Shown: positions 1,795 through 56,284, counted from the first letter of the stretch. The stretch: 64,000 nucleotides of DNA from Deltaproteobacteria bacterium (GCA_024275045.1 JAJRZX010000036.1:19615-83614), one strand, 5' to 3'. Notes: generated by a model not told the origin, from the sequence alone. Numbers and translations: made by a program.

Positions 1795-4437
1795 TTATGT
1801 GGAAAGGTTTTTTATCGTCTCATAGGCTTGTTCCAGGGCCTTGTTTATCTTTGTGCCATGGGGCCCGCCTGCTTGAGCAAGCTCGGCCCTGCCCCCGCCT
1901 CTGCCGCCTATAATCGGTGCGAGGTCTTTTATTATCTCACCTGCATTATATTTTTTCGTCAGGTCTCTTGTAACCGCCACAAGTAGTACGGCCTTGTCTT
2001 CTGAGGCGGCACCGATGACTACGATGCCTGAGCCAAGTTTTTGTCTGAGGTTATCGGCCATATCGCGGAGGATTTTCGCCTCTGTATCCTCGGCCTTGTA
2101 AGCAAGCACTTTTACACCGTTTATCTCACACACCTCACTCATGGTCTGGCCGCTCGCTTCTGCCGCGGCCTTTTTCTTAAGCGCCTCAATTTCTTTTTCC
2201 ATAACGCGCTGTCGGGTGAGCATGTTTTTTATTTTTTCACCAACCTCGGTCTTTGATACTTTGAGGGCTGCCGCAGCCTCTCGCAGCGCCTCTTCTTCGC
2301 TAAAGACTGTCTCAAGGGCACCTGTGCCGGTGGTAGCCTCAATGCGTCTAATGCCTGAAGCTACGGAGCTCTCTGCCGTAAGTTTTATAAGTCCGATATC
2401 TCCGGATCTCTGCACATGCGTGCCTCCGCAGAGCTCTTTACTTACCCCGGGCAGACTTACGAGACGTACATTGGCACCGTATTTATCATCAAAAAAAGCC
2501 AGAGCACCGGCCTTGACAGCCTCGTCATAGGCCATGACGGCTGTGTTTACCTTGATGTTTTTTAAAACTCCCTCATTTGCCTTTTTCTCTATTGCCTTAA
2601 TTTCCTCATATGTAAGGGCGGAAAAGTGGCTGAAATCAAATCTAAAGCCATCTGCGCTTACAAGGGAGCCGCGCTGGCGCACGTGATCGCCAATAAGCTC
2701 ACGAAGGGCCGCGTGTACAATGTGCGTGGCCGTATGGTTTCTGCGGATAGCGGAGCGGCGCTCTTCGTCGGGGTGCAGCACAACGCTATCGTCAACTTTC
2801 AACTCGCCTTTGTTTATACGGCAGTGGTGAACGATAATATCAGGCACGGGTTTTGTAGTGTTCATAACCTCTACTTCAAGCCCCTCTGCCATTATTACTC
2901 CAGTATCACCTACCTGACCGCCTGATTCGCCGTAAAAGGGCGTTTCCTCGGTAATTATATCCACCTCATCACCGGCAGCTGCGGATTCAAGGCTTTCTTG
3001 CCCCTTAAAGATGTGCAGAATTCTTGATGATGAGGAGTTTGAATCGTATCCGGTAAAGGCGGTCTTAACCCCTGCGGCTGCAAGGGCACGGTATTTATCA
3101 CTCTCATTAGAGCCCTCTCCGCCTTTCCACGCGAGGCGCGCTTTTTTTCTCTGCTCCTCCATGGCGGTCTTGAAACCAGCATCATCAACGGTAAGGCCGT
3201 CTCTATTTATAATATCCGCGGTAAGGTCAACGGGAAAGCCGTAGGTATCGTATAATTTAAAGGCAAATGGACCCGGCAGTACGGTCTTATTGCTTTTCTT
3301 AAGGTCCCTTACCTCTGTCTCAAGGATCTCCAGACCCCGTTCAAGGGTCTGTAAAAAACTCTCTTCTTCGGCCCTTGAGGCCCGCTGAATAAGACTCTCC
3401 TCTTCTTTTATCTCAGGGTATATGGGGCTCATTAGTTCAATAACAGTGGAGATAACCGGGCCGAGAAAGGGCTCTGTAAGGCCGAGAAAGCGGCCGTGAC
3501 GAAGGGCCCGTCTTATGATGCGGCGAAGTACGTAGTTTCTCCCTGTATTACCGGGCAGCACCCCCTCTGCCATTAAAAAAGTAATAGCTCTGCTGTGGTC
3601 GGCAATGGCCTTTAGCGATATATCGGCGTCAGGGTTTGAGAGGCTGGCCTCGGGGATAAGGTCTTTGATTGTATTGAGTATGGGTACAAAGAGGTCTGTC
3701 TCGTAATTTGAGGTAACGCCCTGCATTACGGCTGATAGCCTCTCAAGGCCCATGCCCGTATCAATGGAAGGTTTGCTGAGGGGTTTGAGCGTGCCGTCGC
3801 TGAGGCGGTTGGACTCCATGAATACGAGGTTCCATATCTCAAGGTAGCGGTCACACTCACAGCCTACGCGGCAATCCGGGGCCCCGCAGCCAAGTCCTTC
3901 GCCCTGGTCTATGAGTATCTCAGAGCAGGGGCCGCATGGACCGGTGCTGCCCATTGACCAGAAGTTGTCTTTTGCGCCAAGGCGCACAACTCTATCTGCA
4001 TTTACATTGCGGTTTTTTATCCATATATCCGCGGCATCGTCATCGTCCTTATATATGGTAACCCAGAGCTTATCAACGGGCAGACCCATGACAACCGTAA
4101 GAAAATCCCAGGCAAACTCCGTGGCCTCGTCCTTAAAGTAGTCGCCAAAGGAGAAGTTTCCAAGCATCTCAAAGAATGTATGATGGCGCGCGGTCTTGCC
4201 TACGTTCTCAAGGTCGTTATGCTTGCCGCCTGCGCGCATACACTTCTGGCTTGATACCGCCCTCTTGTAATCCCTACTCTCTTCGCCGAGAAATACTCCC
4301 TTGAACTGTACCATGCCCGCGTTGGTAAAGAGCAGAGTAGGGTCCTGCGCGGGAATAAGCCCTGATGACGGGACGTGGCAGTGCTCTCTTGCGGCAAAAT
4401 AATCAATAAACGCCTTTCTTATATCCGAACTTTTCAT
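1795..4437 (-). CDS. alaS: Alanyl-tRNA synthetase
   Basis: An 880 aa protein with the class II AlaRS N-terminus (MKSSDIRKAFIDYFAAREH...), an editing domain and a C-terminal DHHA1-like region. Confidence 0.95.
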   Translation of the reverse strand: MKSSDIRKAFIDYFAAREHCHVPSSGLIPAQDPTLLFTNAGMVQFKGVFLGEESRDYKRAVSSQKCMRAGGKHNDLENVGKTARHHTFFEMLGNFSFGDYFKDEATEFAWDFLTVVMGLPVDKLWVTIYKDDDDAADIWIKNRNVNADRVVRLGAKDNFWSMGSTGPCGPCSEILIDQGEGLGCGAPDCRVGCECDRYLEIWNLVFMESNRLSDGTLKPLSKPSIDTGMGLERLSAVMQGVTSNYETDLFVPILNTIKDLIPEASLSNPDADISLKAIADHSRAITFLMAEGVLPGNTGRNYVLRRIIRRALRHGRFLGLTEPFLGPVISTVIELMSPIYPEIKEEESLIQRASRAEEESFLQTLERGLEILETEVRDLKKSNKTVLPGPFAFKLYDTYGFPVDLTADIINRDGLTVDDAGFKTAMEEQRKKARLAWKGGEGSNESDKYRALAAAGVKTAFTGYDSNSSSSRILHIFKGQESLESAAAGDEVDIITEETPFYGESGGQVGDTGVIMAEGLEVEVMNTTKPVPDIIVHHCRINKGELKVDDSVVLHPDEERRSAIRRNHTATHIVHAALRELIGDHVRQRGSLVSADGFRFDFSHFSALTYEEIKAIEKKANEGVLKNIKVNTAVMAYDEAVKAGALAFFDDKYGANVRLVSLPGVSKELCGGTHVQRSGDIGLIKLTAESSVASGIRRIEATTGTGALETVFSEEEALREAAAALKVSKTEVGEKIKNMLTRQRVMEKEIEALKKKAAAEASGQTMSEVCEINGVKVLAYKAEDTEAKILRDMADNLRQKLGSGIVVIGAASEDKAVLLVAVTRDLTKKYNAGEIIKDLAPIIGGRGGGRAELAQAGGPHGTKINKALEQAYETIKNLST

Positions 4438-13190: not shown

Positions 13191-13486
13191 GACGTATTTT
13201 ACCTGTGAGCGGAGTAGTTGTTTAATCTCTGTCTGAGTGATGCCGCGGGCAGCGCCCGGCTGAGTGAGAGTGTGGATGAAAACCGCAAGCGTGAAGCGGT
13301 AGTTTTTTACAGCGGGCCCTGATTCTCTGTCAATGCCCAGGGGGTTTTATTTTTTGAGCCGTACCCAATATGCCTTGGCCGCCCTTTTAGTGCCTTCGTG
13401 CCCCTCTTGTGCCTTTGTGCCATCCTGCTTCCCATCTGCCCCTTAGCCGAGTATTGCCCCTTTATACCATTTTGCTTCCCACTTGC

Positions 13487-13620
13487 CCCTCTCGCCCTTT
13501 CGCCCAATTACTCTCTCTCCCACTTGCCCCCTCTCGCCCTTTCGCCCCATTACTCTCTTTCCCACACGCCCCTCGCCCTTTCGCCCCATTACTCTCTTTC
13601 CCACACGCCCCTCGCCCCTT
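13487..13620. repeat. About 3.5 tandem copies of a ~40-bp C-rich unit (G-rich on the mre coding strand) in the mreB-mreC intergenic region.
   Basis: The unit is ctcgccctttcgccccattactctctttcccacacgcccc. Copies fall at ~13491, 13533 and 13573, with degenerate copies flanking. The ORF-track ORFs 13398..13703 and 13409..13630 are translations of this repeat. Confidence 0.8.
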
Positions 13621-13626
13621 GGTGCC

Positions 13627-22378: not shown

Positions 22379-22690
22379 ATGAAAGCGGTAGTCAAGACAG
22401 GCGGCAAACAGTATACAATTACAGAGGGCGATACCTTAAGGGTAGAAAAACTTTCAGGCGAGGTTGGCGCCACCATAAATCTCGAAGAGGTTCTCTCCGT
22501 GGGAGAGGGTAAAGACTTCAAGCTTGGTTCTCCCGTAGTGGAAGGGGCCAGCGTAAAGGCCGAGATAGTGGAGCACGGCAGGGGTAAGAAAATTATAGTC
22601 TTCAAGAAAAAGAGAAGAAAAGGTTATAAGAAAAAACAGGGTCACAGGCAGGATTTTACGGGAATAAAGATAGAGGAAATAAAGTACTAA
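22379..22690 (+). CDS. rplU: 50S ribosomal protein L21
   Basis: [12 protein letters not shown]... Confidence 0.95.
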
Positions 22691-22709: not shown

Positions 22710-22961
22710 GTGGCTCATAAAAAAGCAGGCGGAAGCTCAAGAAACGGCAGGGACAGTAACGGGCAGAGAAGAGGAGTAAAGTGCTTTTCAGGGCAGACGG
22801 TACCTGCGGGTTCCATTATAATAAGACAGCTCGGCACCAGGGTGCATCCCGGTGATAACGTGGGAATGGGCAGAGATTACACTATTTTCGCCCGTGTTAA
22901 CGGTACTGTTCAGTTTGTTGATAAGGGTAAGAGAAAGTTCGTAAACATATTACCCGTATAA
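22710..22961 (+). CDS. rpmA: 50S ribosomal protein L27
   Basis: [16 protein letters not shown]... Confidence 0.95.
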
Positions 22962-23018
22962 TATCAGGGTTTTATTAAGGTTACGGGGCGGAGTAAGGGG
23001 AGTTTAATATCAAAGCCG

Positions 23019-23070
23019 GGCGGAGTAAGAGGAGATAGTGAACCTCTTAATATTCCGCCCTTTTTTATTT
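23019..23070 (+). terminator. Rho-independent terminator after rpmA
   Basis: An imperfect GC-rich stem (GGGCGGAGTAAGAGG ... CCTCTTAATATTCCGCCC) followed by TTTTTTATTT. Confidence 0.5.
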
Positions 23071-23074
23071 GTGA

Positions 23075-23326
23075 GTCCTGTGGGCAGATAATGTATCGTT
23101 AGCCGGTTGTAAGCTTCTCCCTTTGGTTTTCTTTATCTTACTTTCTTATATAAGGTCCTGTGGGCAGATAATATATCGTTTGCCGGCTGTAAGCTTCTCC
23201 CTTTGGTTTTCTTTGTCTTACTTTCTTATATAAGGTCCTGTGGGCAGATAATGTATCGTTAGCCGGCTGTAAGCTTCTCCCTTTGGTTTTCTTTGTCTTA
23301 CTTTCTTTTTTCCAAAAGAAAGTAAG
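23075..23326. repeat. Three tandem 80-bp units (period 80: starts 23075, 23155, 23235). The last unit ends in the 13-bp-stem hairpin of the dispersed repeat family, which abuts and overlaps the obg RBS.
   Basis: The unit is gtcctgtgggcagataatgtatcgttagccggctgtaagcttctccctttggttttctttgtcttactttcttatataag. Units differ by 2-4 substitutions. The hairpin is at 23297-23326 and the AAGGAGG RBS at 23324-23330. Confidence 0.85.
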
Positions 23327-23340
23327 GAGGTTTTTAAAAG

Positions 23341-24372
23341 ATGAGATTTATAGATGAGGCTGTAATTACAATATGCTCAGGGGACGGCGGCAGCGGCTGT
23401 GTAAGTTTTCGCCGTGAAAAGTTCATTCCCAGAGGCGGTCCTGACGGCGGTGACGGCGGCCGCGGCGGCGCAGTGATTATGCGTGCCGATCCTAACCTTG
23501 CGAGTTTGTTGGATTTTCGATACAAGCGCAGTTATGCGGCGGATTCGGGAAAGAGCGGCATGGGCGGTAATAAGTCAGGTAAAAAGGGTGAGGATATAGT
23601 GCTTGGCGTCCCTTGCGGCACATTGATATTAGACGCGGCCTCAGGTGTTGTTATCGCCGATATTACGGACCTTGATGATGAGATACGTATTCTTGAGGGC
23701 GGCAGAGGCGGCAAGGGTAACGCGCACTTTAAGAGTTCAAGGCAGCAGGCCCCGAAGTTTGCCCAGCCAGGTGAAGAGGGTCAGGAGTTGGATATAAGGC
23801 TTGAGCTCAAGCTGCTTGCTGATGTGGCTATTATAGGGCTGCCAAACGCCGGTAAATCCACGTTAATATCTCGTATCTCGGCGGCCAAACCTCGCATTGC
23901 CGATTATCCCTTTACCACGCTTACGCCCATGCTGGGTGTGGTAAAAAAAGACAATTTTTCCGAGTTCATCATCGTGGATGTGCCCGGCCTTGTAGAGGGT
24001 GCCCATAGCGGCAAAGGGCTTGGCATAAGGTTTTTAAAGCATGTTGAGAGGACGAGTTTTCTGCTCCACCTTCTTGACCTATCTCCTTTTACGGGCAGGG
24101 ACCCCAAGGAAGATTTTTTCATGATAAACAAGGAGCTTGCGTCCTTTAACGAGTCGCTCTCAAAGCGGCCTCAGGTTGTTGTACTTAATAAAACCGATAT
24201 TACCGGCACAGAGGAGCTGGAGGAAGAACTCTTGAGTTTTTTCCATGCTTCAGGTATAAAGGTTTTTTCAATCTCAGCTGTAACAGGCAAGGGTGTTGAA
24301 GTGCTTGTAAAGTTCGTAGGCGCCGAGCTTGAGAGGATGAAGCAGGGAGAAGGGGGGCTGGCAGGGCGGTGA
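23341..24372 (+). CDS. obg: GTPase Obg/CgtA
   Basis: An Obg fold with a glycine-rich N-domain and G1-G5 motifs (GLPNAGKST, DVPGL, NKTD). Confidence 0.95.
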   Translation: MRFIDEAVITICSGDGGSGCVSFRREKFIPRGGPDGGDGGRGGAVIMRADPNLASLLDFRYKRSYAADSGKSGMGGNKSGKKGEDIVLGVPCGTLILDAASGVVIADITDLDDEIRILEGGRGGKGNAHFKSSRQQAPKFAQPGEEGQELDIRLELKLLADVAIIGLPNAGKSTLISRISAAKPRIADYPFTTLTPMLGVVKKDNFSEFIIVDVPGLVEGAHSGKGLGIRFLKHVERTSFLLHLLDLSPFTGRDPKEDFFMINKELASFNESLSKRPQVVVLNKTDITGTEELEEELLSFFHASGIKVFSISAVTGKGVEVLVKFVGAELERMKQGEGGLAGR

Positions 24373-33391: not shown

Positions 33392-33733
33392 AAAAAGAGG
33401 ATAGCCCTATTAAGGGTGAAAATCAAGCATGAGTACAGGCAGGCAAGGGCAGGGGGAGGCCGAGCGGCCTGTGATTTGACAATTTTTATGATTGGATGTA
33501 ATATATTTATACGCAATACAAAAACATAGAGACTCTTCATTAAAGATCATCAGCACCTGATATGAGTAGTCTTTTTGTCTAAGCAGTCTCGCTGCGAGCG
33601 CATGCCTTAGCCAGGTGATGCAGGTATTTGTCTGCGCTCCGTACTCTTTAAACACCTAACACCCCTGTCTTCTGAGGGGTTGGAGTACATGTATATCTTT
33701 TCATCAAGCAACTCTCAACCGGAGGTTATCGTC

Positions 33734-35458
33734 ATGAATCGATTATCAAACTTCTTGAAGTTCTCAGCGGTATTCTTATTTACGGTTTTTGTATTTGCCT
33801 CCCTCAGCACGGCGGCGGTCTTTCCCGTGCCGGGACTTGAGTGGAGGTGGAACAGCACCCTTGCGGAACCAACATACATTCAGGTAATGATGTCTCCCGA
33901 GTCCGCTGACCTTGACGGTGATGGAATACCGGAGGTAATTTTTATTTCATATCAGCATCGCGCCTGGCAGGCCGATGGTATACTGCGTGCCCTTCACGGC
34001 GCCGACGGCACGGAGTACTTTAACGTACTTGACCCGGCGTTAAGAGCGGCTCCTGGTTCCGACCTTGCCGTAGGGGATATTGATAATGACGGCCTGCCCG
34101 AGATACTGGCCATTAAACAGACGGGCGAGGTGATGTGTTTTGATAATGACGGCACTTGGAAGTGGACGAGCAAGGTGATAGTGGGCATCAGAAAGGCCGT
34201 GGCAATAGCCGATATTGACAACGACGGCGTGCCCGAGGTTATAGCAGGCCGCACTGTACTTAATAACGACGGAAGCATGCGCTGGGTGGGAACGGCAGGC
34301 TCAGGATACGACTCTGTTGTAGCGGACCTTGATCTTGACGGAGTACCGGAGATTGTATCCAGTAATGCGGCATACAGAAACGACGGGACTATCTACTGGT
34401 CCGCTGTAATGGGTACGCGTCACGCAGTGGCAAATTTCAATAAAGACCCTTTTCCAGAGGTGGTTGGAGTTGGTTCACAGGGTGTATATATGGTAGCTCA
34501 TGACGGCACGCCCATCTGGGGCCCCATCGCCTTACCCTCGGCCGCAGGCGGCATAGGCCCTCCTCTGGTAGCTGATTTTGACGGAGATGGTCTGCTTGAT
34601 ATAGGCGTTGCAGGGTACGATTTATACACTGTATTTAACCAAGACGGAACCTACAAGTGGAAGGCCCAAATTCATGACCTCAGCTCCGGTGGCGCCGGCG
34701 CAACGGCCTTTGATTTTGACGGCGACGGGGCCTCTGAGATTGTGTACAGCGATGAGCAGTTTCTGCGCATATTCAGCGGTGTGGACGGCTCGGTGCTCTT
34801 TCAGACCGAAGGCCCCTCGGCTACGCTCTTGGAGCAACCCATAGTACTTGACGTGGACAACGATGGTTTTGCCGAGATAGTAACCGCGCTTAACAACTCA
34901 GACAGGCCCAACCTTAACACGGGCATCGAGGTCTATGGGACTATCCAGCGCTGGCCTCCCTCCAGAACCATCTGGAACCAGTACACATATCACGTCACTA
35001 ACATCAACGACAACGCCACGATACCCATTGCTGAGAAGAATAACTGGGGGGTTTTCAATGACTTCAGGGCCCAGACCTATCAGGGCATTGACCCTGTGCC
35101 GGATCTAAAGGCAAACGGCTCTGATGTCCCTGTTACCGTAACCGCGGGTAACCTTGTCTCTGTAGACGGGGGCATGATACCGAGTATTTATTTTGGTGAT
35201 AATGCTGACTGGTGGGTATGGGCGGATTCTATATTTGGCTCATACTGGTATACGCTGAGTTCAGGGTGGGTGCCTTCGGTTACGCCTGTAATTACCTATG
35301 CCGGGCCGCTCGTGCCTCTTGCTACACGTAATATATTCTCCAGCTCCACTCTTCCCGTAGGCGCTTATGCTGTTCACTTTGATTTAGACATGAACATGAA
35401 CGGGGTTATGGATTTCCCCATGTTCTCTGATAGCGTCCTTATCGATGTTACGCCATGA
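33734..35458 (+). CDS. Secreted FG-GAP/VCBS-repeat beta-propeller protein
   Basis: A signal peptide and at least 7 D-x-D-x-DG-x-x-E calcium-binding FG-GAP motifs (DLDGDGIPE, DIDNDGLPE, DIDNDGVPE, DLDLDGVPE, DFDGDGLLD, DFDGDGASE, DVDNDGFAE). The start is placed at the ATG 7 nt after GGAGG; the ORF-track start at 33680 is upstream and lacks an RBS. Confidence 0.75.
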   Translation: MNRLSNFLKFSAVFLFTVFVFASLSTAAVFPVPGLEWRWNSTLAEPTYIQVMMSPESADLDGDGIPEVIFISYQHRAWQADGILRALHGADGTEYFNVLDPALRAAPGSDLAVGDIDNDGLPEILAIKQTGEVMCFDNDGTWKWTSKVIVGIRKAVAIADIDNDGVPEVIAGRTVLNNDGSMRWVGTAGSGYDSVVADLDLDGVPEIVSSNAAYRNDGTIYWSAVMGTRHAVANFNKDPFPEVVGVGSQGVYMVAHDGTPIWGPIALPSAAGGIGPPLVADFDGDGLLDIGVAGYDLYTVFNQDGTYKWKAQIHDLSSGGAGATAFDFDGDGASEIVYSDEQFLRIFSGVDGSVLFQTEGPSATLLEQPIVLDVDNDGFAEIVTALNNSDRPNLNTGIEVYGTIQRWPPSRTIWNQYTYHVTNINDNATIPIAEKNNWGVFNDFRAQTYQGIDPVPDLKANGSDVPVTVTAGNLVSVDGGMIPSIYFGDNADWWVWADSIFGSYWYTLSSGWVPSVTPVITYAGPLVPLATRNIFSSSTLPVGAYAVHFDLDMNMNGVMDFPMFSDSVLIDVTP

Positions 35459-35489: not shown

Positions 35490-35526
35490 GGGGCGGCCAT
35501 GTAAGAGAGGCCGCCCCTTTTTGATT
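35490..35526. terminator. Bidirectional Rho-independent terminator between the convergent FG-GAP and PAP2-GT genes
   Basis: A 9-bp GC stem (GGGGCGGCC / GGCCGCCCC) with an A6 tract upstream and T5GATTTT downstream. Confidence 0.6.
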
Positions 35527-35562
35527 TTCTTTGCTAACTTTCTTTTTTCCAAAAGAAAGTGG
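35521..35562. repeat. Partial copy (distal ~42 bp) of the dispersed hairpin repeat family
   Basis: ttgattttctttgctaactttcttttttccaaaagaaagtgg aligns with 1751-1793 and 23283-23326. Confidence 0.6.
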
Positions 35563-35566
35563 AGGT

Positions 35567-37726
35567 TTATTCTTTCCTCAGCAGCGCGAAGTCATGCCCT
35601 TTATCTATAAGAGTAAAATCAGGCAGCTGTGTTATGCGTTCTGTTTTTGTAATGAGAAGTAAGGTTTTATTCTTATCCACGTGCAGTTTTTCAAGTGTAC
35701 TGCCTTCGAGTTTTAGTATCTTTTCTCCCGCGTAATAAAAAGCAATAGAGGGCTGGTTTATCTCGTATGTAGCAAGGGCTGCTCCCGTGTTTTTCGCGTA
35801 TGTTGCGAATTCATAGAGGTCTCGCTGCATAAAGGAGTTTACAGGAGGGATGGCGTTGAGGCGCAAGAACACAAGAAGCGCTACAGAGGCGGCTGCGATA
35901 AGAGGGGCGAACCTGCGTGGATTTTTAATGGAGAGCGCGGAAAAAACACCTGTTAGGAGAAAGATTACTCCAAGGCCCGTAAAGAGAGTTGAGGGAAGGG
36001 GTATCTCCATTTTTACGCCAAGGTGCGGTGTTAAAAAGGCGGCGGCAGAGAGTATAAAAGCAAGAATCGCAGCACCTGTAAAAGCAAAACCCCTGCCATT
36101 GCCGCGCTCTAAGGCCCTTGCCACGAGCAGACCTGCAAGTACGGAGCAGGCAGGTATGGCAGGGAAGATGTAGTTTGGTAGTTTTGTTTTTGAGATTGAG
36201 AAGAAGATAAATATGAATAAAAACCATATCGCTGTAAATAGAAAAATATCTTTATTCTCACGCCCTTTGCGTGCCCCTTTAATTCCTTTTATTACGGCAC
36301 CGGGAAGAAACGTAACCCATGGAAAAAATCCGATGAGCAGTATAAGCACGTAAAAATACGGGGGCCCTCCGTGGCTTGAGATAACTCCGGTAAAGCGGTG
36401 AATATGGTGTTTTATAATAAAGGCGTCTATGAATTCCCAGCCCCGCGCGTTGTACTCAAGGAGAAACCAGGGCATGGAGATAAGGAGAAATAATAGTATG
36501 TACAGTGGGTTGCAGAAGCGTTTTATAGAGGAAAAATCTCTTATTACAAGGAGGTAAATAAATGTTATGGAGACGGGAAATAGCAGTCCTATGGCCCCTT
36601 TTGTAAGCATGGCAAGGGCCGAAGAGGCCCAGAACCCCATGTAGAGCCACTTGTTCCCTGTTTTTATCGCACCGTAGGCTGAAAATAAAGCCCCTGAGAT
36701 AAAAAAGGCCAGCGTCATGTCTGTTACCGCGGAGTGTGAGTATACAAAGAACTCAAGGTTCAGCAATAGCACGAGGCTGCTCCAGAGCGCCGCGTTAAAA
36801 CCCTTGAAGCGTCTCACAAATACAAAGGTTAAGAGGACAAGCAATGCTACAAAGGCGGCAGAAGGAAACCTTGCCGAGAACTCCGAGGTACCAAAGAGTT
36901 TAAAGGCCCCGGACATGGCCCAGTAAAAGAGTATGGGTTTGTCATATCGAGGCTCGAAGTTATATGAGGGGGTAATGAGGTCGCCTGTTACCACCATCTC
37001 ACGCGAGGCCTCGGAGAATACGGCCTCGTCCACGTCAAATACAAGGTAGCCCCCGAGCTTGAAAAAGCATATTGAGATGACAAGGAGCGCAAGGGCAGCC
37101 TTAACCCACTTTTTTTTATCAAAATCAGCACCCCTCCCTCTGGTTAGCAGCCAGCCCACGGCCAGGCCCAGCACCGCGCCGCCAACTACGTCTGAGGCGT
37201 AGTGAGAGCCCAGCGCGATTCTGCTCAGCCCGATGAGTACGGCCGTAAGGTACAGAGGAGGGCGAAGGCGCGGGTATCGCCTGCCAAGCACCACGGAGAT
37301 GGCAAAGGCCGTTGCGGTGTGTCCTGATGGAAAGGAGTTGAACCTGCCGGTAAGATCAAAAAAAGACGGGTGCGAGAGGGCGTGAAGTATGTACTCTGAA
37401 ACATGCGCTAAACGGGGCCTCTCAAATACTGCCTTTAGCAGCTGCGCAATAACCCCGGAGAGCAGTATGGCGTAGAGGGCCTCTTTTCCTGCGGCGGCAA
37501 GATGAGTGTTTTTAAGCTTTCGGCCAATACCCATTAGTATGAGACTTACGGGTATTAAGACTCCGCCGTTACCAAGGAGGCTGAAGAACTCGGCAACAGA
37601 GGATGTAAGGGTGCCCGGGTTAAGGGAGGCGAGTCTTGAGTCAAATGCGGCCGATATCAGAAGGACCGTAAGCGCACCGGTAAGGGCTAAAAAGACCTGC
37701 CTTGAAGAAGGCTTTTCGGCTATCAA
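35567..37726 (-). CDS. Fusion membrane protein: an N-terminal PAP2 (acid phosphatase/undecaprenyl-PP phosphatase-like) domain plus a GT-C glycosyltransferase of the ArnT/PMT (GT39/GT83) type
   Basis: PAP2 motifs are PSGH and SR-x5-H-x3-D (SFPSGHTATAFAI...SRIALGSHYASDV). The GT-C module has the DE-x-x-F/Y signature (DEAVFSEASREMV...KPILFYW). 719 aa with ~14 TM helices. Confidence 0.65.
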   Translation of the reverse strand: MIAEKPSSRQVFLALTGALTVLLISAAFDSRLASLNPGTLTSSVAEFFSLLGNGGVLIPVSLILMGIGRKLKNTHLAAAGKEALYAILLSGVIAQLLKAVFERPRLAHVSEYILHALSHPSFFDLTGRFNSFPSGHTATAFAISVVLGRRYPRLRPPLYLTAVLIGLSRIALGSHYASDVVGGAVLGLAVGWLLTRGRGADFDKKKWVKAALALLVISICFFKLGGYLVFDVDEAVFSEASREMVVTGDLITPSYNFEPRYDKPILFYWAMSGAFKLFGTSEFSARFPSAAFVALLVLLTFVFVRRFKGFNAALWSSLVLLLNLEFFVYSHSAVTDMTLAFFISGALFSAYGAIKTGNKWLYMGFWASSALAMLTKGAIGLLFPVSITFIYLLVIRDFSSIKRFCNPLYILLFLLISMPWFLLEYNARGWEFIDAFIIKHHIHRFTGVISSHGGPPYFYVLILLIGFFPWVTFLPGAVIKGIKGARKGRENKDIFLFTAIWFLFIFIFFSISKTKLPNYIFPAIPACSVLAGLLVARALERGNGRGFAFTGAAILAFILSAAAFLTPHLGVKMEIPLPSTLFTGLGVIFLLTGVFSALSIKNPRRFAPLIAAASVALLVFLRLNAIPPVNSFMQRDLYEFATYAKNTGAALATYEINQPSIAFYYAGEKILKLEGSTLEKLHVDKNKTLLLITKTERITQLPDFTLIDKGHDFALLRKE

Positions 37727-45733: not shown

Positions 45734-46987
45734 ATGAAGTACATGAAAGGATTAAAGTGCAGGGAGTGCGCAAAGACATATCCCCTGGACCCCATCCATG
45801 TCTGCGAGCTCTGTTTCGGCCCACTTGAGGTGGATTATGATTATGATAATATTGCCAAGGTGCTTACAAAAGACCTTATTACAGGCAGGGCGCCCAATAT
45901 GTGGAGATACAGAGAGCTTCTTCCCATAGACGCCGAGCCCTCGGTTGGCCTTAACTCGGGTTTTACGCCTCTTATACGGGCCTATAACCTCGGCGAGGCA
46001 CTTGGTGTAAAGGAGCTTTACATTAAGAACGACGCCGTGAACTTTCCCACGCTCTCCTTTAAGGACCGCGTGGTCTCCGTTGCCATTTCGCGTGCCATAG
46101 AGATGGGGTTTGACGTAATAGCCTGCGCCTCCACGGGCAACCTTGCCAACTCCGTTGCCGCAAATTCCGCTGCCTGCGGCCTTGACAGTTACGTCTTTGT
46201 GCCCTACGACCTTGAGCAGACCAAGATTACGGGCACCATTGTCTACGGCACCAACCTTGTTGGCATAAAAGGCACCTATGACGAGGTGAACAGGCTCTGC
46301 AGCGAGATAGGCGGTAAATACGGCTGGGCCTTTGTAAATATTAACATCAGGCCATTTTACGCAGAGGGTTCAAAGACCTTTGGTTACGAGATAGCCGAGC
46401 AGCTTGGGTGGAAGCTGCCGCAGCACGTTATCGTGCCAATGGCCGGGGGCTCTCTTATTACAAAGATATGGAAGGCATTTAAAGAGTTCAAGGCCCTGGG
46501 TTTTGTTGACAGCGCTCCTGCCAGGATATACGGAGCGCAGGCCACGGGCTGCGCCCCCATAGTAACTGCCGTAAAGGAAAAGAGCGAGCTTATACGTCCG
46601 GTAAAACCCGATACCATCGCAAAGTCTCTTGCTATCGGCAACCCCGCGGACGGCTTTTATTCAGCCCGTACCATTCGCGATAGCGGCGGCTGGGCAGAGG
46701 ACGTATCTGATGATGAGATAATCGAGGCAATGAAGCTCCTGGCCGAGACAGAGGGCATATTCGCCGAGACAGCAGGCGGCGTGACGGTAGGGGTGACAAA
46801 GAAACTCATTGAGCAGGGACGCATTGCCCGTGACGAGTCCATTGTTATCTCTGTTACGGGTAACGGCCTTAAGACTCAGGAGTGCCTTGCGGGCAAGATC
46901 TCAGAGCCTCCTGTAATAGAGGCGAAGCTGGCCGAGTTCGACGCACTTGTGGATGGCGGCAAGATGAAAAAAGCCGCTATCAAATAA
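45734..46987 (+). CDS. Threonine-synthase-family PLP enzyme with an N-terminal zinc ribbon. It may be a genuine threonine synthase or an O-phosphohomoserine-dependent homocysteine synthase (MetM-like).
   Basis: PLP lysine in the SFKDR context, a Trp-synthase-beta fold, and an N-terminal C-x2-C...C-x2-C. It sits directly behind the S-box. Confidence 0.75.
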   Translation: MKYMKGLKCRECAKTYPLDPIHVCELCFGPLEVDYDYDNIAKVLTKDLITGRAPNMWRYRELLPIDAEPSVGLNSGFTPLIRAYNLGEALGVKELYIKNDAVNFPTLSFKDRVVSVAISRAIEMGFDVIACASTGNLANSVAANSAACGLDSYVFVPYDLEQTKITGTIVYGTNLVGIKGTYDEVNRLCSEIGGKYGWAFVNINIRPFYAEGSKTFGYEIAEQLGWKLPQHVIVPMAGGSLITKIWKAFKEFKALGFVDSAPARIYGAQATGCAPIVTAVKEKSELIRPVKPDTIAKSLAIGNPADGFYSARTIRDSGGWAEDVSDDEIIEAMKLLAETEGIFAETAGGVTVGVTKKLIEQGRIARDESIVISVTGNGLKTQECLAGKISEPPVIEAKLAEFDALVDGGKMKKAAIK

Positions 46988-47207
46988 GACGGGCTCTTAA
47001 GCGGCGGCGGTAAAGTACAGCGGGGATTATTAAGTGAAGTCCTGAGGCGGCGGTTCTTTCTTGTCCTGTTATAGAGGGGCGAAGTTCTCTTTTACCGCTG
47101 CTTTTGTTGTAATCAAAGGCCCTACTCTGTTATAATAAAAAAATTAACCTCATAATGCTACTTCTTCCCCTTTAAGTACGAGGGGCTTATTCAAGGAGGC
47201 CACTTAG

Positions 47208-48194
47208 ATGACGGACCATTACATAGAGGATAAGACTAACAGGGTTGACCTTGACCTTGAGAAACTCAAAGGAAAGGTTAACTTCAATGACCTTAAATCC
47301 GGGGGGTTTATAAAGCAGAAGCAGAAAGACCTCTTTACCGTGAGGCTGCGCTGTCCGGGCGGCATGATGACCACGGATAAGCTTATTGAGATTTCAAAGC
47401 TTGCCAAAAAATACAGCAAAGAAGGCATGGTGCATTTCAGCTACCGTCAATCCTTTGAGATACTCTATGTGGATTACAGGGACTTTCACGCACTGGTTTC
47501 GGAGCTTGAGGCGCTGGGGCAGAAGGTTGCCTCTTGCGGCCCCCGTGTCAGGGTGCCTACTGCCTGCGGTGGATGCGAGTACAACCCCAACGGACTTATA
47601 GACGCGCAGGCCATGGCCCGTATGGTGGACAAAGAATTCTTCGGCACAAATACGCCCCATAAGTTCAAGACCTCTTTCTCGGGCTGTCCCATTGATTGCT
47701 CAAGAACCGTTGAGATGGACCTTGGTTTTCAGGGCGTTGTAGACCCCGAGTGGGTGCAGGACCTCTGCACGGGCTGCACCATCTGCTCTGAAGCATGTAA
47801 GGAAGGCGCCATTGAGGCCCATCCCGATACAGGTGAACCAATATTCGATGTTAATAAATGCCTCTACTGCGCTGACTGCATTCGCGCCTGCCCAACAGAG
47901 GCTTGGAAGCCCAGGCGTCACGGATTTATCGTACGCATAGGCGGTAAACACGGCCGTCACCCCCTCGAGGGCGTTGAGGTATGCCGCTTTCTCCCTGAAG
48001 ACAAGGTAAGTCATGCCATTGATATGACCGTAAAGTGGTACAAGGCAAACGGCAAGAGTTTCGAGAGGATAGGAAGCACGCTTCAGAGGCTTGGCATGGA
48101 TAGTTATGTTAAGCACATGGCCCCGGTATTTGGAGACATGGCCGTGGTTCCAGAGCATCCGCCTACTGACAGGCCCCTTATAGACCAGGGCTGA
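47208..48194 (+). CDS. Small dissimilatory-type sulfite-reductase-like protein (Dsr-LP/alSir-like) with an inserted 2x[4Fe-4S] ferredoxin domain
   Basis: Putative siroheme/Fe-S Cys cluster ...TACGGCEY...SGCPIDC, followed by two ferredoxin motifs CTGCTICSEAC and CLYCADCIRACP. 328 aa. Confidence 0.55.
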   Translation: MTDHYIEDKTNRVDLDLEKLKGKVNFNDLKSGGFIKQKQKDLFTVRLRCPGGMMTTDKLIEISKLAKKYSKEGMVHFSYRQSFEILYVDYRDFHALVSELEALGQKVASCGPRVRVPTACGGCEYNPNGLIDAQAMARMVDKEFFGTNTPHKFKTSFSGCPIDCSRTVEMDLGFQGVVDPEWVQDLCTGCTICSEACKEGAIEAHPDTGEPIFDVNKCLYCADCIRACPTEAWKPRRHGFIVRIGGKHGRHPLEGVEVCRFLPEDKVSHAIDMTVKWYKANGKSFERIGSTLQRLGMDSYVKHMAPVFGDMAVVPEHPPTDRPLIDQG

Positions 48195-48359
48195 TATTAG
48201 TAGGGGCCGGTCTGGTAAAGACAGCTTATAAGCAGGTGGTACTTAAGAGAAACGTTAAAAGAATCAAGAGCGCCAAGACCGCGGTCGGCTTTATGTACCG
48301 CTTAGCGAGATGATATAACCTCCCTCAGGGATAACGATTAAGAAGAGCAGTGATAAAAG

Positions 48360-48605
48360 GTGGATATGGACGATATAACGGCAAAAGAGAGCATTGATCT
48401 ACGGGGCGTAATGTGCCCCACCAACTTTGTAAAGACAAAGCTTAAGCTTGAGGCCATGGACCCCGGGGATATTCTTGAGGTGGTTCTTGATGCAGGCGAA
48501 CCCATTGCCAACGTGCCAAAGAGCGTCAAGGAAGAGGGACATAAGATTGTCAAGGTAATTAAAGACGACGGCTCATTCAGGATTATGATAGAAGTCTCTG
48601 AGTAG
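48360..48605 (+). CDS. TusA/SirA-like sulfurtransferase (two-layered alpha/beta sandwich)
   Basis: 81 aa with the conserved Cys in LRGVMCPTNFVKTK (TusA CPxP-like position) and a DILEVV-type pattern. Confidence 0.55.
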   Translation: MDMDDITAKESIDLRGVMCPTNFVKTKLKLEAMDPGDILEVVLDAGEPIANVPKSVKEEGHKIVKVIKDDGSFRIMIEVSE

Positions 48606-48634
48606 CCTGTAATTCAACTTTTAAGGAGGCCGAA

Positions 48635-48919
48635 ATGCCAGTAAAGGTAAGGATACCAACACCGCTCAGAAAGATAACAAAGGACAACGATGAGGTTCTG
48701 GCCGAGGGGACTACTGTTACCGAGGTTATAGAGGACCTTGAGAAGAACTACCCCGGCCTCAAAGAGAGGATCTGCGAGGACGACGGCAACCTCCGCCGTT
48801 TTGTAAATCTTTATCTCAATGACGAGGACATACGTTTTAAGGATAACCTCAATACCAGCGTCTCTGATAATGACGAGTTATCCATTATCCCGGCCATAGC
48901 CGGCGGAGGTGCGGGTTGA
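48635..48919 (+). CDS. ThiS/MoaD-family sulfur-carrier protein with the C-terminal extension ...AGGG-AG
   Basis: 94 aa with a beta-grasp pattern. A Gly-Gly is followed by two extra residues (AG) before the stop. The stop overlaps the TTG start of the next gene (GTTGA). Confidence 0.6.
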   Translation: MPVKVRIPTPLRKITKDNDEVLAEGTTVTEVIEDLEKNYPGLKERICEDDGNLRRFVNLYLNDEDIRFKDNLNTSVSDNDELSIIPAIAGGGAG

Positions 48920-49152
48920 AAAAAAAGGTCTATCTTACTTATCCCTCCGATAAGGTTAAGGAGCCTCTTCTTTGCCTGTGTTCGCGCAAATTCAAGGTCT
49001 TAACCAATATCAGGCAGGCTTCTGTAACGGATAAGATTGGAATAGTTGCCCTTGAGCTTGAGGGCGAGGCCTCTGAGATAGAGAAGGCCATGGACTTTTT
49101 TACGGAAAACGGTGTAATGGTCGAGCCTATTGAGATGGATATTATAGTTTAG
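48916..49152 (+). CDS. NIL-domain (MetN C-terminal-like, ACT-fold) small protein
   Basis: 78 aa. RKFKVLTNIRQASVTDKIGIVALELEGE...GVMVEPI parallels E. coli MetN C2 ([30 protein letters not shown]...VKVEVLGYV). It is translationally coupled to the carrier gene. Confidence 0.5.
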   Translation: MKKKVYLTYPSDKVKEPLLCLCSRKFKVLTNIRQASVTDKIGIVALELEGEASEIEKAMDFFTENGVMVEPIEMDIIV

Positions 49153-49178
49153 CTCCGTTCTGGTCTGTATGTTTTCTG

Positions 49179-49230
49179 CCCGCTCTTGAGACCATCTGAA
49201 CACATGGCCGAGAGCGGGTATTTTGTATTC
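49179..49230 (+). terminator. Putative terminator after the NIL gene (stem CCCGCTCT...AGAGCGGG followed by TATTTTGTATT)
   Basis: An 8-bp GC-rich stem with a large loop and a U-rich tail. A promoter-like TTGACA follows at 49271. Confidence 0.35.
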
Positions 49231-49402
49231 ATCAGCCTTCTTTTTTCCCGTAAATTCGCTGAAATTATTCTTGACAAATGCGGTAGGGTATTATAAATTT
49301 ATATACTTGATATTTTTACTAAGGTAATAGAAATACCTTATAAAAAAAGGGGTTTTACATGGACTCTCTATTATTGGTCCAATACCGCGGAAGAGGTCTT
49401 GA

Positions 49403-50362
49403 ATGAGAAAAAACAATACACTGGAGAGTTTTGAGGCAGAGAAAGGACCCTCGGCAGGCAAGGCACGGTTCTCGGCCCTTGAGCTTGTTGGTAATACGCC
49501 TCTTGTGAGGATAAACAGGATTACAAAAGACCTGCCGAGCGGTGTTGAGGTATACGCCAAGCTTGAGTCCGCCAACCACGGCGGCTCTGTAAAAGACAGA
49601 CCCGCGCTGCGCATGATTGAAGACGCGGAGAAGAGCGGGCGGCTTACAAAGGAAAAGATAATACTGGACTCCACATCAGGCAACACGGGCATTGCCTATG
49701 CCTGGATAGGCGCCGTAAAGCAACACCGCGTGGAGCTTGTGGTGCCGGAGAACGTAAGCTCAGAGCGAAAAAAGATACTTGACGCATTTGGGGCGAGGGT
49801 GATTTTCTCAAGCCCTTTTGAGGGCTCTGACGGGGCCATACGCCTTGCGTGGAAGCTATACGTGGCTAACCCCGAAAAGTACTGCAAGCTTGACCAGTAC
49901 AACAACCCCTCAAACCCCCTGGCCCATTACTACGGCACAGGGCTTGAGATTATAGAGCAGACAGGCGGGGCCATTACCCACTTTGTCACTACCATCGGCA
50001 CAGGGGGAACCATAATGGGCACCATGCGCAGGCTAAAGGAATTTAACAGCAATATTCAGGTCATCGCTGTAGAGCCTGATAACCCCATGCACGGCCTTGA
50101 GGGTCTTAAACACATGGCCTCATCAATAGTGCCGGGCATATATCACGAGGACTCTCTTGACGGCAAGGTCCCTGCCTCAACAGAGGAGTCTTATGAGATG
50201 ACCAAGAGGCTCGCGAGAGAAGAGGGGCTTCTTGTGGGCCAGTCTTCAGGGGCGGCCATGCTTGGAGCCCTTAAGGTGGCAAGCGGCCTTACCGAGGGAG
50301 TGGTGGTAACCATCTTTCCCGATGGCGGAGACAAATACCTCTCCACACGTCTCTGGGAGTAG
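49403..50362 (+). CDS. Cysteine synthase (CysK/CysM family; possibly thiocarboxylate-dependent, CysM-like)
   Basis: PLP lysine in the SVKDR context, and GNTGIA, GTGGT motifs. 319 aa. Confidence 0.85.
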   Translation: MRKNNTLESFEAEKGPSAGKARFSALELVGNTPLVRINRITKDLPSGVEVYAKLESANHGGSVKDRPALRMIEDAEKSGRLTKEKIILDSTSGNTGIAYAWIGAVKQHRVELVVPENVSSERKKILDAFGARVIFSSPFEGSDGAIRLAWKLYVANPEKYCKLDQYNNPSNPLAHYYGTGLEIIEQTGGAITHFVTTIGTGGTIMGTMRRLKEFNSNIQVIAVEPDNPMHGLEGLKHMASSIVPGIYHEDSLDGKVPASTEESYEMTKRLAREEGLLVGQSSGAAMLGALKVASGLTEGVVVTIFPDGGDKYLSTRLWE

Positions 50363-50695
50363 GGTACATAGGGCGGCAGGGGGGACGTGCGCAGGGGCAA
50401 GTGGGTGCCGGGGTGAGATAACCGGGGTAGTGCGGAGTTTATATGTAGTGGTGCTTTGGGTCCAATAGGAAGTAAGTACCCCATGACGCACGATTTAATT
50501 GTTTTCATTACGTATTGATTTACAAGACCTTCTTAACTTTAAAATTTAAAATCTGAGATTTTTTTAAAGGGCCTTTGCGAGACCCTTTTAGAGTTTTTGC
50601 AGGTAAGAGCATTTTTTTCTACAGACAGATACGCGTAAGAAGAATATGGGGGCAAAGAGCCCTCTTAACTTAAAAATAAACTTAAGGGGTAAGTC

Positions 50696-51163
50696 ATGGG
50701 TCTGCTCTCAAAGTTCAGGAAAAAAGAAAAATTGTATGTTCCAAAGGAATTTTATGACGATATGATTGAGCACGCCAAGCTGGAGTATCCGCATGAGTGC
50801 TGCGGCGTTCTTATAGGCAACTCCATGATGGGGGACAGGAAGATATTTCACACCGAGAGGTGCACTAACCTCAATAAAGAGCGCGCCCATGACAGGTATC
50901 TCATGGACCCCAGAGAGATAAACCTCGCTGATAAGGGTGCACGCGCGCAGTCCCTTGAGATTATGGGGTTTTACCACTCGCACCCGGATCATCCCGACAG
51001 GCCCTCGGAGTACGACCGTGAGGTGGCCCACCCCGGGTACTCGTACATAATACTCTCGGTAAAGGACGGCAAAGAGGTTACGGCAAAGTCCTGGACATTT
51101 GCCGAGCTTGATGAGCCCTTTGTGGAAGAGGCCATTGAGGTAACAGTATCAAAGTGGAAGTAA
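50696..51163 (+). CDS. JAMM/MPN+ zinc metalloprotease (Mec+/HcyD/QbsD-like)
   Basis: The complete JAMM motif E...HSH-x7-S-x2-D (HECCG ... HSHPDHPDRPSEYD). Confidence 0.75.
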   Translation: MGLLSKFRKKEKLYVPKEFYDDMIEHAKLEYPHECCGVLIGNSMMGDRKIFHTERCTNLNKERAHDRYLMDPREINLADKGARAQSLEIMGFYHSHPDHPDRPSEYDREVAHPGYSYIILSVKDGKEVTAKSWTFAELDEPFVEEAIEVTVSKWK

Positions 51164-51286
51164 GAGTTTCTTTTAAGGTATAAATAAAGGTTGTATTTAT
51201 CTTATCATAAAGCTTTTTTGCGGTAGGGTTACATCTATAACCGTGAAATAACTTTTTCTCTTTTTTTTAAGGGGGTAGTTCATAAG

Positions 51287-52096
51287 ATGGACTTTACAGA
51301 TGAGCAGATAGAGCGTTACTCAAGACACATTATACTGCCCGAGGTAGGGGGAAAAGGTCAGACAAAACTCCTTGAGTCCAAGGTCTTTGTCCTTGGAGCA
51401 GGAGGGCTTGGCTCACCGGCGCTTCTGTACCTTGCAGCCGCGGGTGTTGGCACAATAGGCATCGCAGACGGCGATGTGGTGGATGTAAGTAACCTGCAGC
51501 GTCAGATAATCCATGACAACAATACAGTGGGCATGGCAAAGGTGGAGAGCGCTCGTAAATCCATCGAGGCCCTTAACCCCGATGTGGTGGTTAATACCTT
51601 TAACAGCCGTCTTGGTATAGAGAATATCCGCGAGGTGCTCCGTGACTACGATGTTGTGCTTGACGGCTCTGATAACTTTCCAACGCGTTACCTTATGAAC
51701 GACGCCTCCTTTTTTGAGGGCAAGACCCTTATCTCGGGCAGCATGTTCAGGTTTGACGGACAGGTCTCTGTCTTTAAGCCGGCTGATGGGTACCCCTGCT
51801 ACAGGTGCCTCTATCCCGAGCCGCCGCCAAAGGGCATGGTACCGTCCTGTCAGGAGGCCGGTGTGCTTGGCGCTCTTGCCGGTGTTATCGGTGTGCTGCA
51901 GGCTGTTGAGGCAATTAAAGAGATACTCTCCATAGGCAAGGTCCTTGCAGGAGAGCTCTTGATATTTGACGCCCTTGGTATGAGCTTTCGTAAAGTCAAG
52001 GTGCGGCGCGACCCTGATTGCGCGCTCTGCGGCGAAAATGCCACTATAAAGGAACTCTCGCTCTATGAGCAGGCACCCTGTGAGCTGCGTACCTGA
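51287..52096 (+). CDS. ThiF/MoeB-family E1-like adenylyltransferase (no rhodanese domain)
   Basis: Nucleotide loop GAGGLGSP, an RQ motif, and Zn-binding C-x2-C...C-x2-C (PCYRC, DCALCG). Confidence 0.85.
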   Translation: MDFTDEQIERYSRHIILPEVGGKGQTKLLESKVFVLGAGGLGSPALLYLAAAGVGTIGIADGDVVDVSNLQRQIIHDNNTVGMAKVESARKSIEALNPDVVVNTFNSRLGIENIREVLRDYDVVLDGSDNFPTRYLMNDASFFEGKTLISGSMFRFDGQVSVFKPADGYPCYRCLYPEPPPKGMVPSCQEAGVLGALAGVIGVLQAVEAIKEILSIGKVLAGELLIFDALGMSFRKVKVRRDPDCALCGENATIKELSLYEQAPCELRT

Positions 52097-55486: not shown

Positions 55487-56191
55487 ATGGCAGGAAAGCA
55501 GTGGAGTGAAGAAGAACTTAAGGCAGTATCCGATGAGCTTGAAGATAAGGGACCCCAGGCCGCCATTCAATGGGCTGTGGATAATTTCGATACACAGGAC
55601 TTATCTCTTGCCTGTAGTTTCGGCGCCGAGGACGTTGCTCTTGTGGATATGCTTGTGAAGATAAAACCTGATGCAAGGATTTTTTATCTTGATACAAATA
55701 AGCTCTTCAAGGAGACCATTGATGTAATGGAGCGCCTTAAAGAGAGGTACAATATTAACCCTGAGAAGTATACCTCAAAGATGAGCCTTGCCGAGCAGGC
55801 CGCCGAGTTCGGCGATGAGCTCTGGGCAAAGGATCCGAAGAAGTGCTGCGACATAAGAAAGATAACACCTCTTAAAGAAGCTCTCTCAGGGCTTAGTGCC
55901 TGGATTACCGGTATAAGAAGGGATCAGGCACCGGCAAGGGCCAACGCCCCTGTAGTTGGCTGGGACGCCATGTTCAACCTTGTGAAGATAAACCCGCTGG
56001 TAAAGTGGACGAGCGAGGATGTGTGGGATTATATCCGCGCCAATAACGTGCCTTACAATGAGCTTCATGACAAGAATTACCCCTCAATAGGCTGTGAGCC
56101 ATGCACCAATGAGGTGAAGCCAGGCGAGGACCCAAGGGCCGGAAGATGGGCCGGATTTAAGAAGACAGAGTGCGGACTTCACGACAAGTAA
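55487..56191 (+). CDS. cysH: Assimilatory adenylyl-sulfate (APS) reductase, Fe-S type (CysH family)
   Basis: The PAPS_reduct fold plus a Cys-Cys pair (KKCCDIRK) and C-x2-C (GCEPCT) for the [4Fe-4S] cluster. The C-terminal ECGLH carries the catalytic Cys. Confidence 0.85.
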   Translation: MAGKQWSEEELKAVSDELEDKGPQAAIQWAVDNFDTQDLSLACSFGAEDVALVDMLVKIKPDARIFYLDTNKLFKETIDVMERLKERYNINPEKYTSKMSLAEQAAEFGDELWAKDPKKCCDIRKITPLKEALSGLSAWITGIRRDQAPARANAPVVGWDAMFNLVKINPLVKWTSEDVWDYIRANNVPYNELHDKNYPSIGCEPCTNEVKPGEDPRAGRWAGFKKTECGLHDK

Positions 56192-56284
56192 TCGTAAGAA
56201 CGCCTGTGAGGTAATTGCGGAAGCATAGTGATTAATATAACTTTATCTCTTGCAACTAAACAGTCTTAGGGAGGATTTTCAAAG

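Follow-up and report, generated by a model that had tools for sequence, protein, structure and literature searches.

The rpmA-obg spacer

The spacer between rpmA and obg occupies positions 22962-23340 of the window (the whole 64,000-nt stretch of DNA analysed here) and contains, in order, the rpmA terminator, a tandem array, a terminal hairpin and the obg ribosome-binding site. Upstream lie rplU (22379-22690, an ORF call) and rpmA, the gene of ribosomal protein L27 (ORF 22710-22961, + strand), the orthologues of which in relatives carry PF01016; downstream is the gene of the GTPase Obg (23341-24372, + strand; PF01018 and PF01926), with its start ATG at 23341. The intrinsic terminator of rpmA was found on the + strand by inverted-repeat search and is formed by a hairpin (23018-23060) and a T-run (23061-23066); its sequence is kept in all close relatives. 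The 5' arm of this hairpin, GGGCGGAGTAAGAGGAG (23018-23034), is duplicated 32 nt upstream on the same strand as GGGCGGAGTAAGGGGAG (22986-23002; repeat search), a duplicate that is kept in the relatives L006 and L167; either copy of the 5' arm is able to pair with the single 3' arm, which gives two alternative hairpins.

A preliminary description of this DNA placed a tandem array of three 80-bp units between the two genes, and the array is present as described; Tandem Repeats Finder (23075-23307, period 80, 96% matches, score 438) and a repeat search agree on it, the former giving 2.9 copies, a number that comes from one short-read MAG assembly and may be too low. Units 1 (23075-23154) and 2 (23155-23234) are full, while the third is partial and has a divergent end; the segments 23155-23234 and 23235-23314 are 95% and 91% identical to unit 1. 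Unit 1 comprises a weakly structured body, a U-rich box (the U-box, here in the variant TGGTTTTCTTTA at 23124-23135), the 5' arm of a hairpin and the junction ATATAAG. The U-boxes of units 2 and 3 are found at 23204-23215 and 23284-23295. The internal units terminate in CTTACTTTCTT-ATATAAG and thus hold the hairpin 5' arm only; the body of unit 3 (23235-23296) runs on into the complete hairpin, which is why its last 7 nt diverge. All units are on the + strand and each has two private substitutions; a 47-nt piece of the unit has three matches in the window against 0.00 expected by chance.

The array is closed by the hairpin SL2, CTTACTTTCTTTT-TTCC-AAAAGAAAGTAAG (23297-23326, + strand), which was recovered as an inverted repeat, by alignment and by folding. 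The perfect 13-bp stem with a TTCC loop of the preliminary description is thus found, with arms at 23297-23309 and 23314-23326 that are 100% complementary over 13 nt and a fold energy of -13.6 kcal/mol at 37 °C; a perfect complement to 11 nt of the 3' arm is contained in both unit 1 and unit 2. Next comes AAGGAGG, the Shine-Dalgarno (SD) sequence of obg, at 23324-23330 (+ strand), with a 10-nt U/A spacer to 23340. The hairpin had also been said to lie over the ribosome-binding site; it does overlap the AAG, but only one of the five core GGAGG bases is inside the hairpin proper.

The mini-ORF ATG-TAT-CGT-TAG attributed to every unit is present in units 1 and 3 only, as unit 2 reads ATA TAT CGT TTG; with this mini-ORF in two of the three units, no SD and no conservation in relatives, it was rejected as a functional feature and is treated as chance.

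Further copies of the element in the window

The preliminary description raised the question of copies of the unit elsewhere in the genome, and its core does occur at two further loci of the 64-kb window. This core consists of the U-box (TGGTTTTCTTTG) followed by the hairpin CTTTCTTTT-TTCC-AAAAGAAAG and recurs at 1745-1794 and 35515-35566; the U-box TGGTTTTCTTTG and the upper hairpin CTTTCTTTTTTCNAAAAGAAAG are each found at 1752-1789 and 35522-35559, both on the + strand, where chance would give 0.4 U-boxes and 0.00 upper SL2 hairpins per window. Profile searches with nhmmer and a covariance model run with filters off return exactly three element loci in the 64 kb. The dispersal of the element is an observation, and neither of the two further copies has a downstream gene.

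The second copy (1700-1794, + strand) has a body about 70% identical to the 80-bp unit, alignable with it over about 50 nt, followed by the U-box and SL2; it sits in the convergent spacer of bamD (870-1682, + strand; BamD Pfam domains found) and alaS (1795-4437, - strand). The third copy (35515-35566, + strand) is a short form made up of the U-box variant TGATTTTCTTTG, SL2 and GGAGG. It lies directly 3' of the GC-rich terminator of an FG-GAP-repeat gene (ORF 33680-35458); on its other side it borders immediately on the stop codon of a PAP2/PMT gene in convergent orientation (ORF 35567-37726, - strand). The window copies are all single and lie on the + strand. Over positions 1-64000 of the window, 15 of 16 4-kb bins have a positive GC skew, which makes the + strand the probable leading strand along the whole length; the three window copies are on this strand, and the relative L169 has one copy on each strand.

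The element in related genomes

The Obg protein encoded in the window assigns it to an uncultured lineage of Thermodesulfobacteriota, and rpmA-obg spacers were compared from relatives with Obg proteins 68-87% identical to it. The preliminary description had asked whether array copy number varies, and at this site it does; the spacers of relatives hold 0, 1, 2, 3.3 or 9.1 units (2.9 in the window), with periods of 80, 82, 89 or 158 bp. One element is present in L006 and two copies 158 bp apart in L003; L167 (= L070) has 3.3 units of 89 bp and L004 (= L005/L007) has 9.1 units of 82 bp. L169 and L172 each have one element, located 100 nt and 60 nt upstream of the ATG respectively, with two tandem hairpins in L172. 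The hairpin adjoins the obg SD in five lineages (the window, L003, L004, L006 and L167); the units of L004 and L167 are without the hairpin 5' arm, and the first unit of L004 starts inside a U-box-like T-stretch.

The element is absent from the rpmA-obg spacers of L008/L166 and L168, where the T-run of the terminator is followed by 2-4 nt and then ATGAGA; these sites (L008 2985-3006; L166 990-1013; L168 2480-2506) have no SD and are too short for a promoter. With the terminator T-run abutting the obg ATG in these relatives, the array is, as had been suggested, an insertion into an otherwise minimal spacer. The essential obg gene of L008, L166 and L168 seems to depend on terminator read-through and SD-less initiation.

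Presence and absence also vary at a second locus, as L175 carries an element in its bamD-alaS spacer and L176, from the same MAG as L004 with its nine-unit obg array, has an empty bamD-alaS spacer of 20 nt. A further locus is found in L169, with an element at 1098-1147 on the minus strand in an acyltransferase/rplU spacer; the element loci examined amount to five independent genomic loci only. Filled sites have T-runs on both flanks. Contigs of five independent assemblies end within or beside the element, as expected for a repeat; one contig with the same Obg as L169 (L170, 1-165) turns to unrelated sequence exactly in the hairpin loop, which is probably a chimeric assembly join at the repeat.

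Model searches return no element copy in about 430 kb around obg of relatives with Obg at most 62% identical, and collections of viral contigs, phages and plasmids have no match to the element; an origin from such a mobile genetic element was set aside. Rfam 15, ribosomal-protein leaders included, gives chance matches only (to a lncRNA and a plant microRNA, with scores well short of the gathering threshold), and a literature search found nothing specific to the element. Among the matches listed from one metagenome scan with a generic GTPase peptide pattern there were distant Obg loci only, and an exact look-up of the Obg of the window matched no contig. In a neighbour-joining tree of Obg, basal as well as internal lineages carry the element, and those without it are nested among them; this pattern suggests that the element was inserted once, long ago, that it was then lost in places, and that it expanded independently with unit boundaries that differ.

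Conservation and secondary structure

Eleven independent copies of the element were aligned, and in all of them the U-box and the upper 9 bp of SL2 are invariant. The lower four to five pairs of SL2 change on both sides of the stem (UUA/UAA, CUC/GAG, CCA/UGG and CCG/CGG); five lower-stem pairs have compensatory changes, with 14 double-change cells and 92% of cells paired. The covariation score was reached by none of 500 shuffles, and slid controls were much lower. Covariation in the lower stem indicates that a folded single strand is under selection. The structured leader envisaged in the preliminary description is supported in part: the hairpin structure is selected, but it is not dedicated to obg, as the core is found elsewhere with no following gene. 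The U-box is separated from the hairpin by 4 or 5 nt across relatives. A purine-rich tail, which reads GGAGG, GAAGG or GGGAGG, stands between SL2 and a U-run in 9 of the 11 copies, some of them remote from start codons.

Between most lineages the unit bodies do not align. A conserved body hairpin ("SL1") had appeared suggestive from single-sequence folds but was rejected, as RNAalifold on the alignable bodies retains six pairs, those of a GGG/CCC clamp only, and the unit body of the window folds no better than shuffles (z = +0.9); in several other copies a good hairpin closes just before the U-box (0-3 nt). The strict invariance of U-box and upper stem in old copies with diverged bodies points to a sequence-specific function or partner, as judged from the aligned sequences, and is explained well by none of the readings considered below.

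A leader peptide or hydrophobic type I toxin translated from TTG codons of the U-box was also considered and rejected; the TTG-initiated ORFs of the window (23123-23233 and 23283-23357) have no SD, and they change frame between relatives according to whether U-box and hairpin are 4 or 5 nt apart.

Expression of obg

No sigma-70-like promoter was found in the arrays of the window, L003, L004 and L167, and a promoter array was rejected as a reading of these four. Two further promoter candidates were discarded: a sigma-54 -24/-12 element in the U-box, which has GG-N8-GC rather than GG-N10-GC spacing, and a -10 element at the junction CTTATATAAG, which lacks the final T and has no -35. The small-RNA locus suggested earlier finds no support either, as no array tested contains a sigma-70-like promoter and no Rfam family matches; the growth-rate control of Obg that was suggested with it is purely speculative. 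From the arrays without a promoter and the empty sites without room for one, we infer that obg is transcribed by read-through of the rpmA terminator; the array would then be part of the obg leader.

Since the relatives with empty sites have no SD, the element appears to have donated the obg ribosome-binding site; in the window its 3' end appears, by position, to supply the SD AAGGAGG at 10 nt from the ATG. When the 110 nt before the obg ATG are folded by partition function, the predicted structure has the U-box CUUU stacked beneath SL2 and paired with the GAGG of the SD; with this stacking, the predicted probability that SD bases are free of pairing is at most 0.1 at 37 °C and rises to about 0.3 at 60 °C. 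The occlusion of the SD by the hairpin, as put forward in the preliminary description, is thus a reasonable idea for this genome according to the folding model, and an effect on obg translation is plausible; full masking, however, would require pairing of the U-box CUUU with GAGG and not the hairpin by itself. Predicted masking is similar in L003 and weaker in L004, L167 and L006. In L169 and L172 it is impossible, with the hairpin 60-100 nt from the ATG. SD masking cannot be the reason for conservation of the element, because identical cores occur where nothing is translated. In L003 (2954-2987) the 5' arm of the hairpin reads CCUCCUUUCU, which we take to be the common 3' tail of bacterial 16S rRNA, and the 3' arm reads AGAAAGGAGG, presumably the matching extended SD.

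Comparison with known repeats and RNA elements

The element occurs at several unlinked loci and its copy number differs between genomes, which are the properties of a variable-tandem interspersed intergenic repeat. The mycobacterial interspersed repetitive units (MIRU) of Mycobacterium tuberculosis are 40-100 bp in length, intergenic within operons and co-oriented with genes, and form tandem arrays that vary between lineages; their small ORFs overlap the stop and start codons of flanking genes. The element shares this layout as a dispersed, co-oriented intergenic unit within an operon that has a variable tandem copy number. It differs in that its small ORFs are not conserved in frame and do not overlap stop and start codons, in its invariant terminal hairpin and U-box, in the amplification of its 5' part only, and in belonging to an unrelated phylum. 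The BOX elements of Streptococcus pneumoniae are arranged as boxA-boxB(n)-boxC with a repeated middle module, have a predicted RNA fold and can alter the expression of neighbouring genes; the likeness is again one of layout, in a modular interspersed repeat with one module of variable tandem number, whereas here the repeated module is the 5' one and a single 3' hairpin module closes the array.

As in REP, BIME and REPIN sequences, a conserved extragenic palindrome that forms a hairpin is found in multiple copies at gene 3' ends and between convergent genes. Unlike REP and REPIN sequences, the element has no RAYT among the 56 ORFs of the window, is flanked by the U-box rather than GTAG, and occurs in single rather than paired copies; its core is conserved over genus-level divergence, whereas REP sequences are species-specific. 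FourU RNA thermometers resemble the predicted pairing of CUUU and hairpin with the GGAGG before the start codon, which loosens with heat, although the sequence of the element is also found without a start codon and its distance to the ATG is not conserved among relatives. The order of direct repeats, hairpin and ORF recalls the arrays of ToxI-type III antitoxins; the ORF, however, encodes no endoribonuclease toxin but the housekeeping GTPase Obg, each repeat measures 80 nt where those of ToxI have 34-40 nt, and the element is also found without any downstream gene. A type III toxin-antitoxin system was rejected on the identity of the downstream gene as obg (PF01018, PF01926).

Several other classes were tried and dropped. 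For a miniature inverted-repeat transposable element (MITE) there are no terminal inverted repeats between the element ends, and the flanks are T-rich without being identical or forming a target-site duplication. DnaA-box iterons would have to contain a 4-nt insertion (TGTGG-GCAG-ATAA) that is not conserved in relatives. A word of the kind found in DNA-uptake sequences was sought in AAAAGAAAG, which occurs just once outside the hairpins.

Origin and role of the array

The array is probably, although far from certainly, a local amplification of a clade-specific interspersed intergenic repeat that was inserted long ago, expanded independently in different lineages and is carried by read-through transcription. 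The repeat would be confined to one clade of uncultured Thermodesulfobacteriota and would be made up of a quickly evolving body (about 50 nt), a U-rich box (UGGUUUUCUUUG) and an A/U-rich hairpin, both of them invariant apart from the covarying lower stem, a purine-rich GGAGG tail and a U-run, the array of the window being a variable-number-type amplification of its 5' part. In an ancestor of the clade, a single copy may have been inserted into the T-rich stretch that separates the obg ATG from the rpmA terminator. Body and U-box would then have expanded separately in several lineages, by slipped-strand or unequal recombination, and been deleted again in others. Slippage between T-tract and U-box in particular was rejected, because the two T-rich boxes are 64 bp apart rather than 80 and such slippage gives neither the 80-bp period nor the junction ATATAAG. 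With obg lacking its own promoter and transcribed through the rpmA terminator, the array is likely to be a passive passenger in the 5' leader of obg. The element's 3' end may give obg a strong SD at the correct 10-nt spacing, and the hairpin as extended by the U-box may fold over this SD and limit translation initiation, with melting as a possible relief; extra units probably add just leader length and weak terminator-like U-tracts.

That the array is a dedicated cis-regulatory leader of obg (an attenuator or RNA thermometer), in which the repeated 5' arms tune expression by alternative pairing, is thought distinctly unlikely. The hairpin beside the SD in the window, L003, L004, L006 and L167, the covarying stem, the predicted rise in unpaired SD bases between 37 and 60 °C and the 11-nt complements of the 3' arm in units 1 and 2 would all suit such a leader; it is contradicted by the identical cores with no following ORF, by hairpins 60-100 nt off in L169 and L172 and absent in L008/L166 and L168, and by the units of L004 and L167, the missing 5' arm of which means that alternative pairing is not a conserved property. 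A selfish mobile element (REP/RAYT-like, or a mover of single-stranded DNA hairpins) that targets T-tracts behind terminators, with array and SD as accidents, is an unlikely explanation, for which may be cited the dispersed intergenic copies, presence/absence polymorphism at two loci, the T-runs flanking filled sites, the copy at 35.5 kb within a terminator T-tract, the L169 spacer that gathers several other repeats, and a hairpin that is a recognisable conserved module as in REP elements. It would have to do without terminal inverted repeats, a clean target-site duplication, a GTAG-type flank, inverted pairs, a transposase or RAYT among the 56 window ORFs and any match in the viral, phage and plasmid collections; moreover, old and diverged bodies around a core that is invariant down to 68% Obg identity look like purifying selection rather than recent spread.

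A terminator or RNA-processing cassette recognised by a host factor (with an upstream hairpin and U-box, then SL2 and U-run, as tandem intrinsic terminators, or with an RNase E-type site between protective hairpins), the number of units setting read-through into obg, is considered quite improbable. SL2 and the U-run are flagged as terminator-like in the window, L003 and L004, and the U-run is 0-4 nt from the extended stem in 9 of 11 copies; every copy is co-oriented with an upstream or downstream gene, and convergent spacers, which call for terminators, hold two of the window's three copies. The hairpin that closes before the U-box in several copies is richer in G-U pairs on the + strand (summed energy -167 against -138 kcal/mol for the reverse complement), and the invariant sequence suggests a specific partner. 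This upstream hairpin is nevertheless inconsistent, given the shuffle z-score of the window body and the six pairs kept by RNAalifold; SL2 itself is A/U-rich, with 3-4 G-C pairs in its stem, and is separated from the U-run by GGAGG. Stacked terminators before a promoterless essential gene would be hard to reconcile with obg expression, and the analysis yielded no candidate factor. The possibility of an assembly artefact, either a wrongly expanded repeat or a chimeric MAG join, was weighed because the window comes from one assembly, related assemblies break at this spot and L170 has its probable chimeric join exactly in the hairpin loop; it is very improbable, as the private substitutions make the units resolvable, arrays were assembled independently (with no difference between L004 and L005 over 234 nt and with agreement of L167 and L070) and the flanks are collinear with relatives.

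As an amplified clade-specific repeat the array is an ordinary kind of object in an unstudied lineage, although it fits no named repeat family. Should this reading be right, the lesson would be mostly one of caution, as a striking repeat before an essential gene would be a copy of a clade-wide repeat and not a bespoke regulator; the repeat would also be the donor of the SD of an essential gene, the start codon of which would otherwise follow a terminator by 2-4 nt. The family is undescribed and belongs to uncultured Thermodesulfobacteriota, with a 22-nt hairpin core invariant down to 68% Obg identity, and its variable-number locus, at which assemblies from short reads break, might be used to mark strains. 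Only the invariance of the core holds out the prospect of a novelty, such as a new host factor or mechanism. The U-box and hairpin might, for instance, be recognised by a conserved host factor such as the 30S subunit, an RNase or a factor for termination or anti-termination, with unit number as a heritable dial on the share of very strong ribosomal-protein transcription that gets to obg; this is a speculative suggestion that is held to be unlikely, and if true it would define a new sequence-specific, terminator-proximal RNA module in this clade of Thermodesulfobacteriota.

Other intergenic repeats and gene clusters

The acyltransferase/rplU spacer of L169 (1160-1330, minus strand) also contains CCCTTCGACGGGCT twice, a palindrome GTCACCCTGAGC...CGAAGGGTGAC and GC-rich hairpins, and appears to collect repetitive DNA. 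In the window, the 436-nt spacer of mreB and mreC (13191-13626) has a 39-42-nt tandem repeat in 3.3 copies (array 13476-13617), which is G-rich (GGGGCGAAAGGGCGAGGGGCGUGUGGGAAAGAGAGUAAU) on the transcribed minus strand. Similar runs of GGGGCGTA or GGGGCAG are found between the rpmA stop codon and the terminator in L006, L008/L166, L167, L168 and L169, in the rplU-rpmA spacer of L016 and in the bamD-alaS spacer of L175; the G-rich runs look like a second, separate intergenic repeat family of the clade.

A gene cluster at 45734-52096 of the window encodes PLP-dependent enzymes (two with PALP domains), a sulfite/nitrite reductase-like protein, ThiS, a JAB protease and ThiF, and resembles the sulfur-carrier-protein pathway of cysteine synthesis (CysO/CysM/Mec-type); it is followed by genes for PAPS reductase and ATP sulfurylase at 55487-57448.
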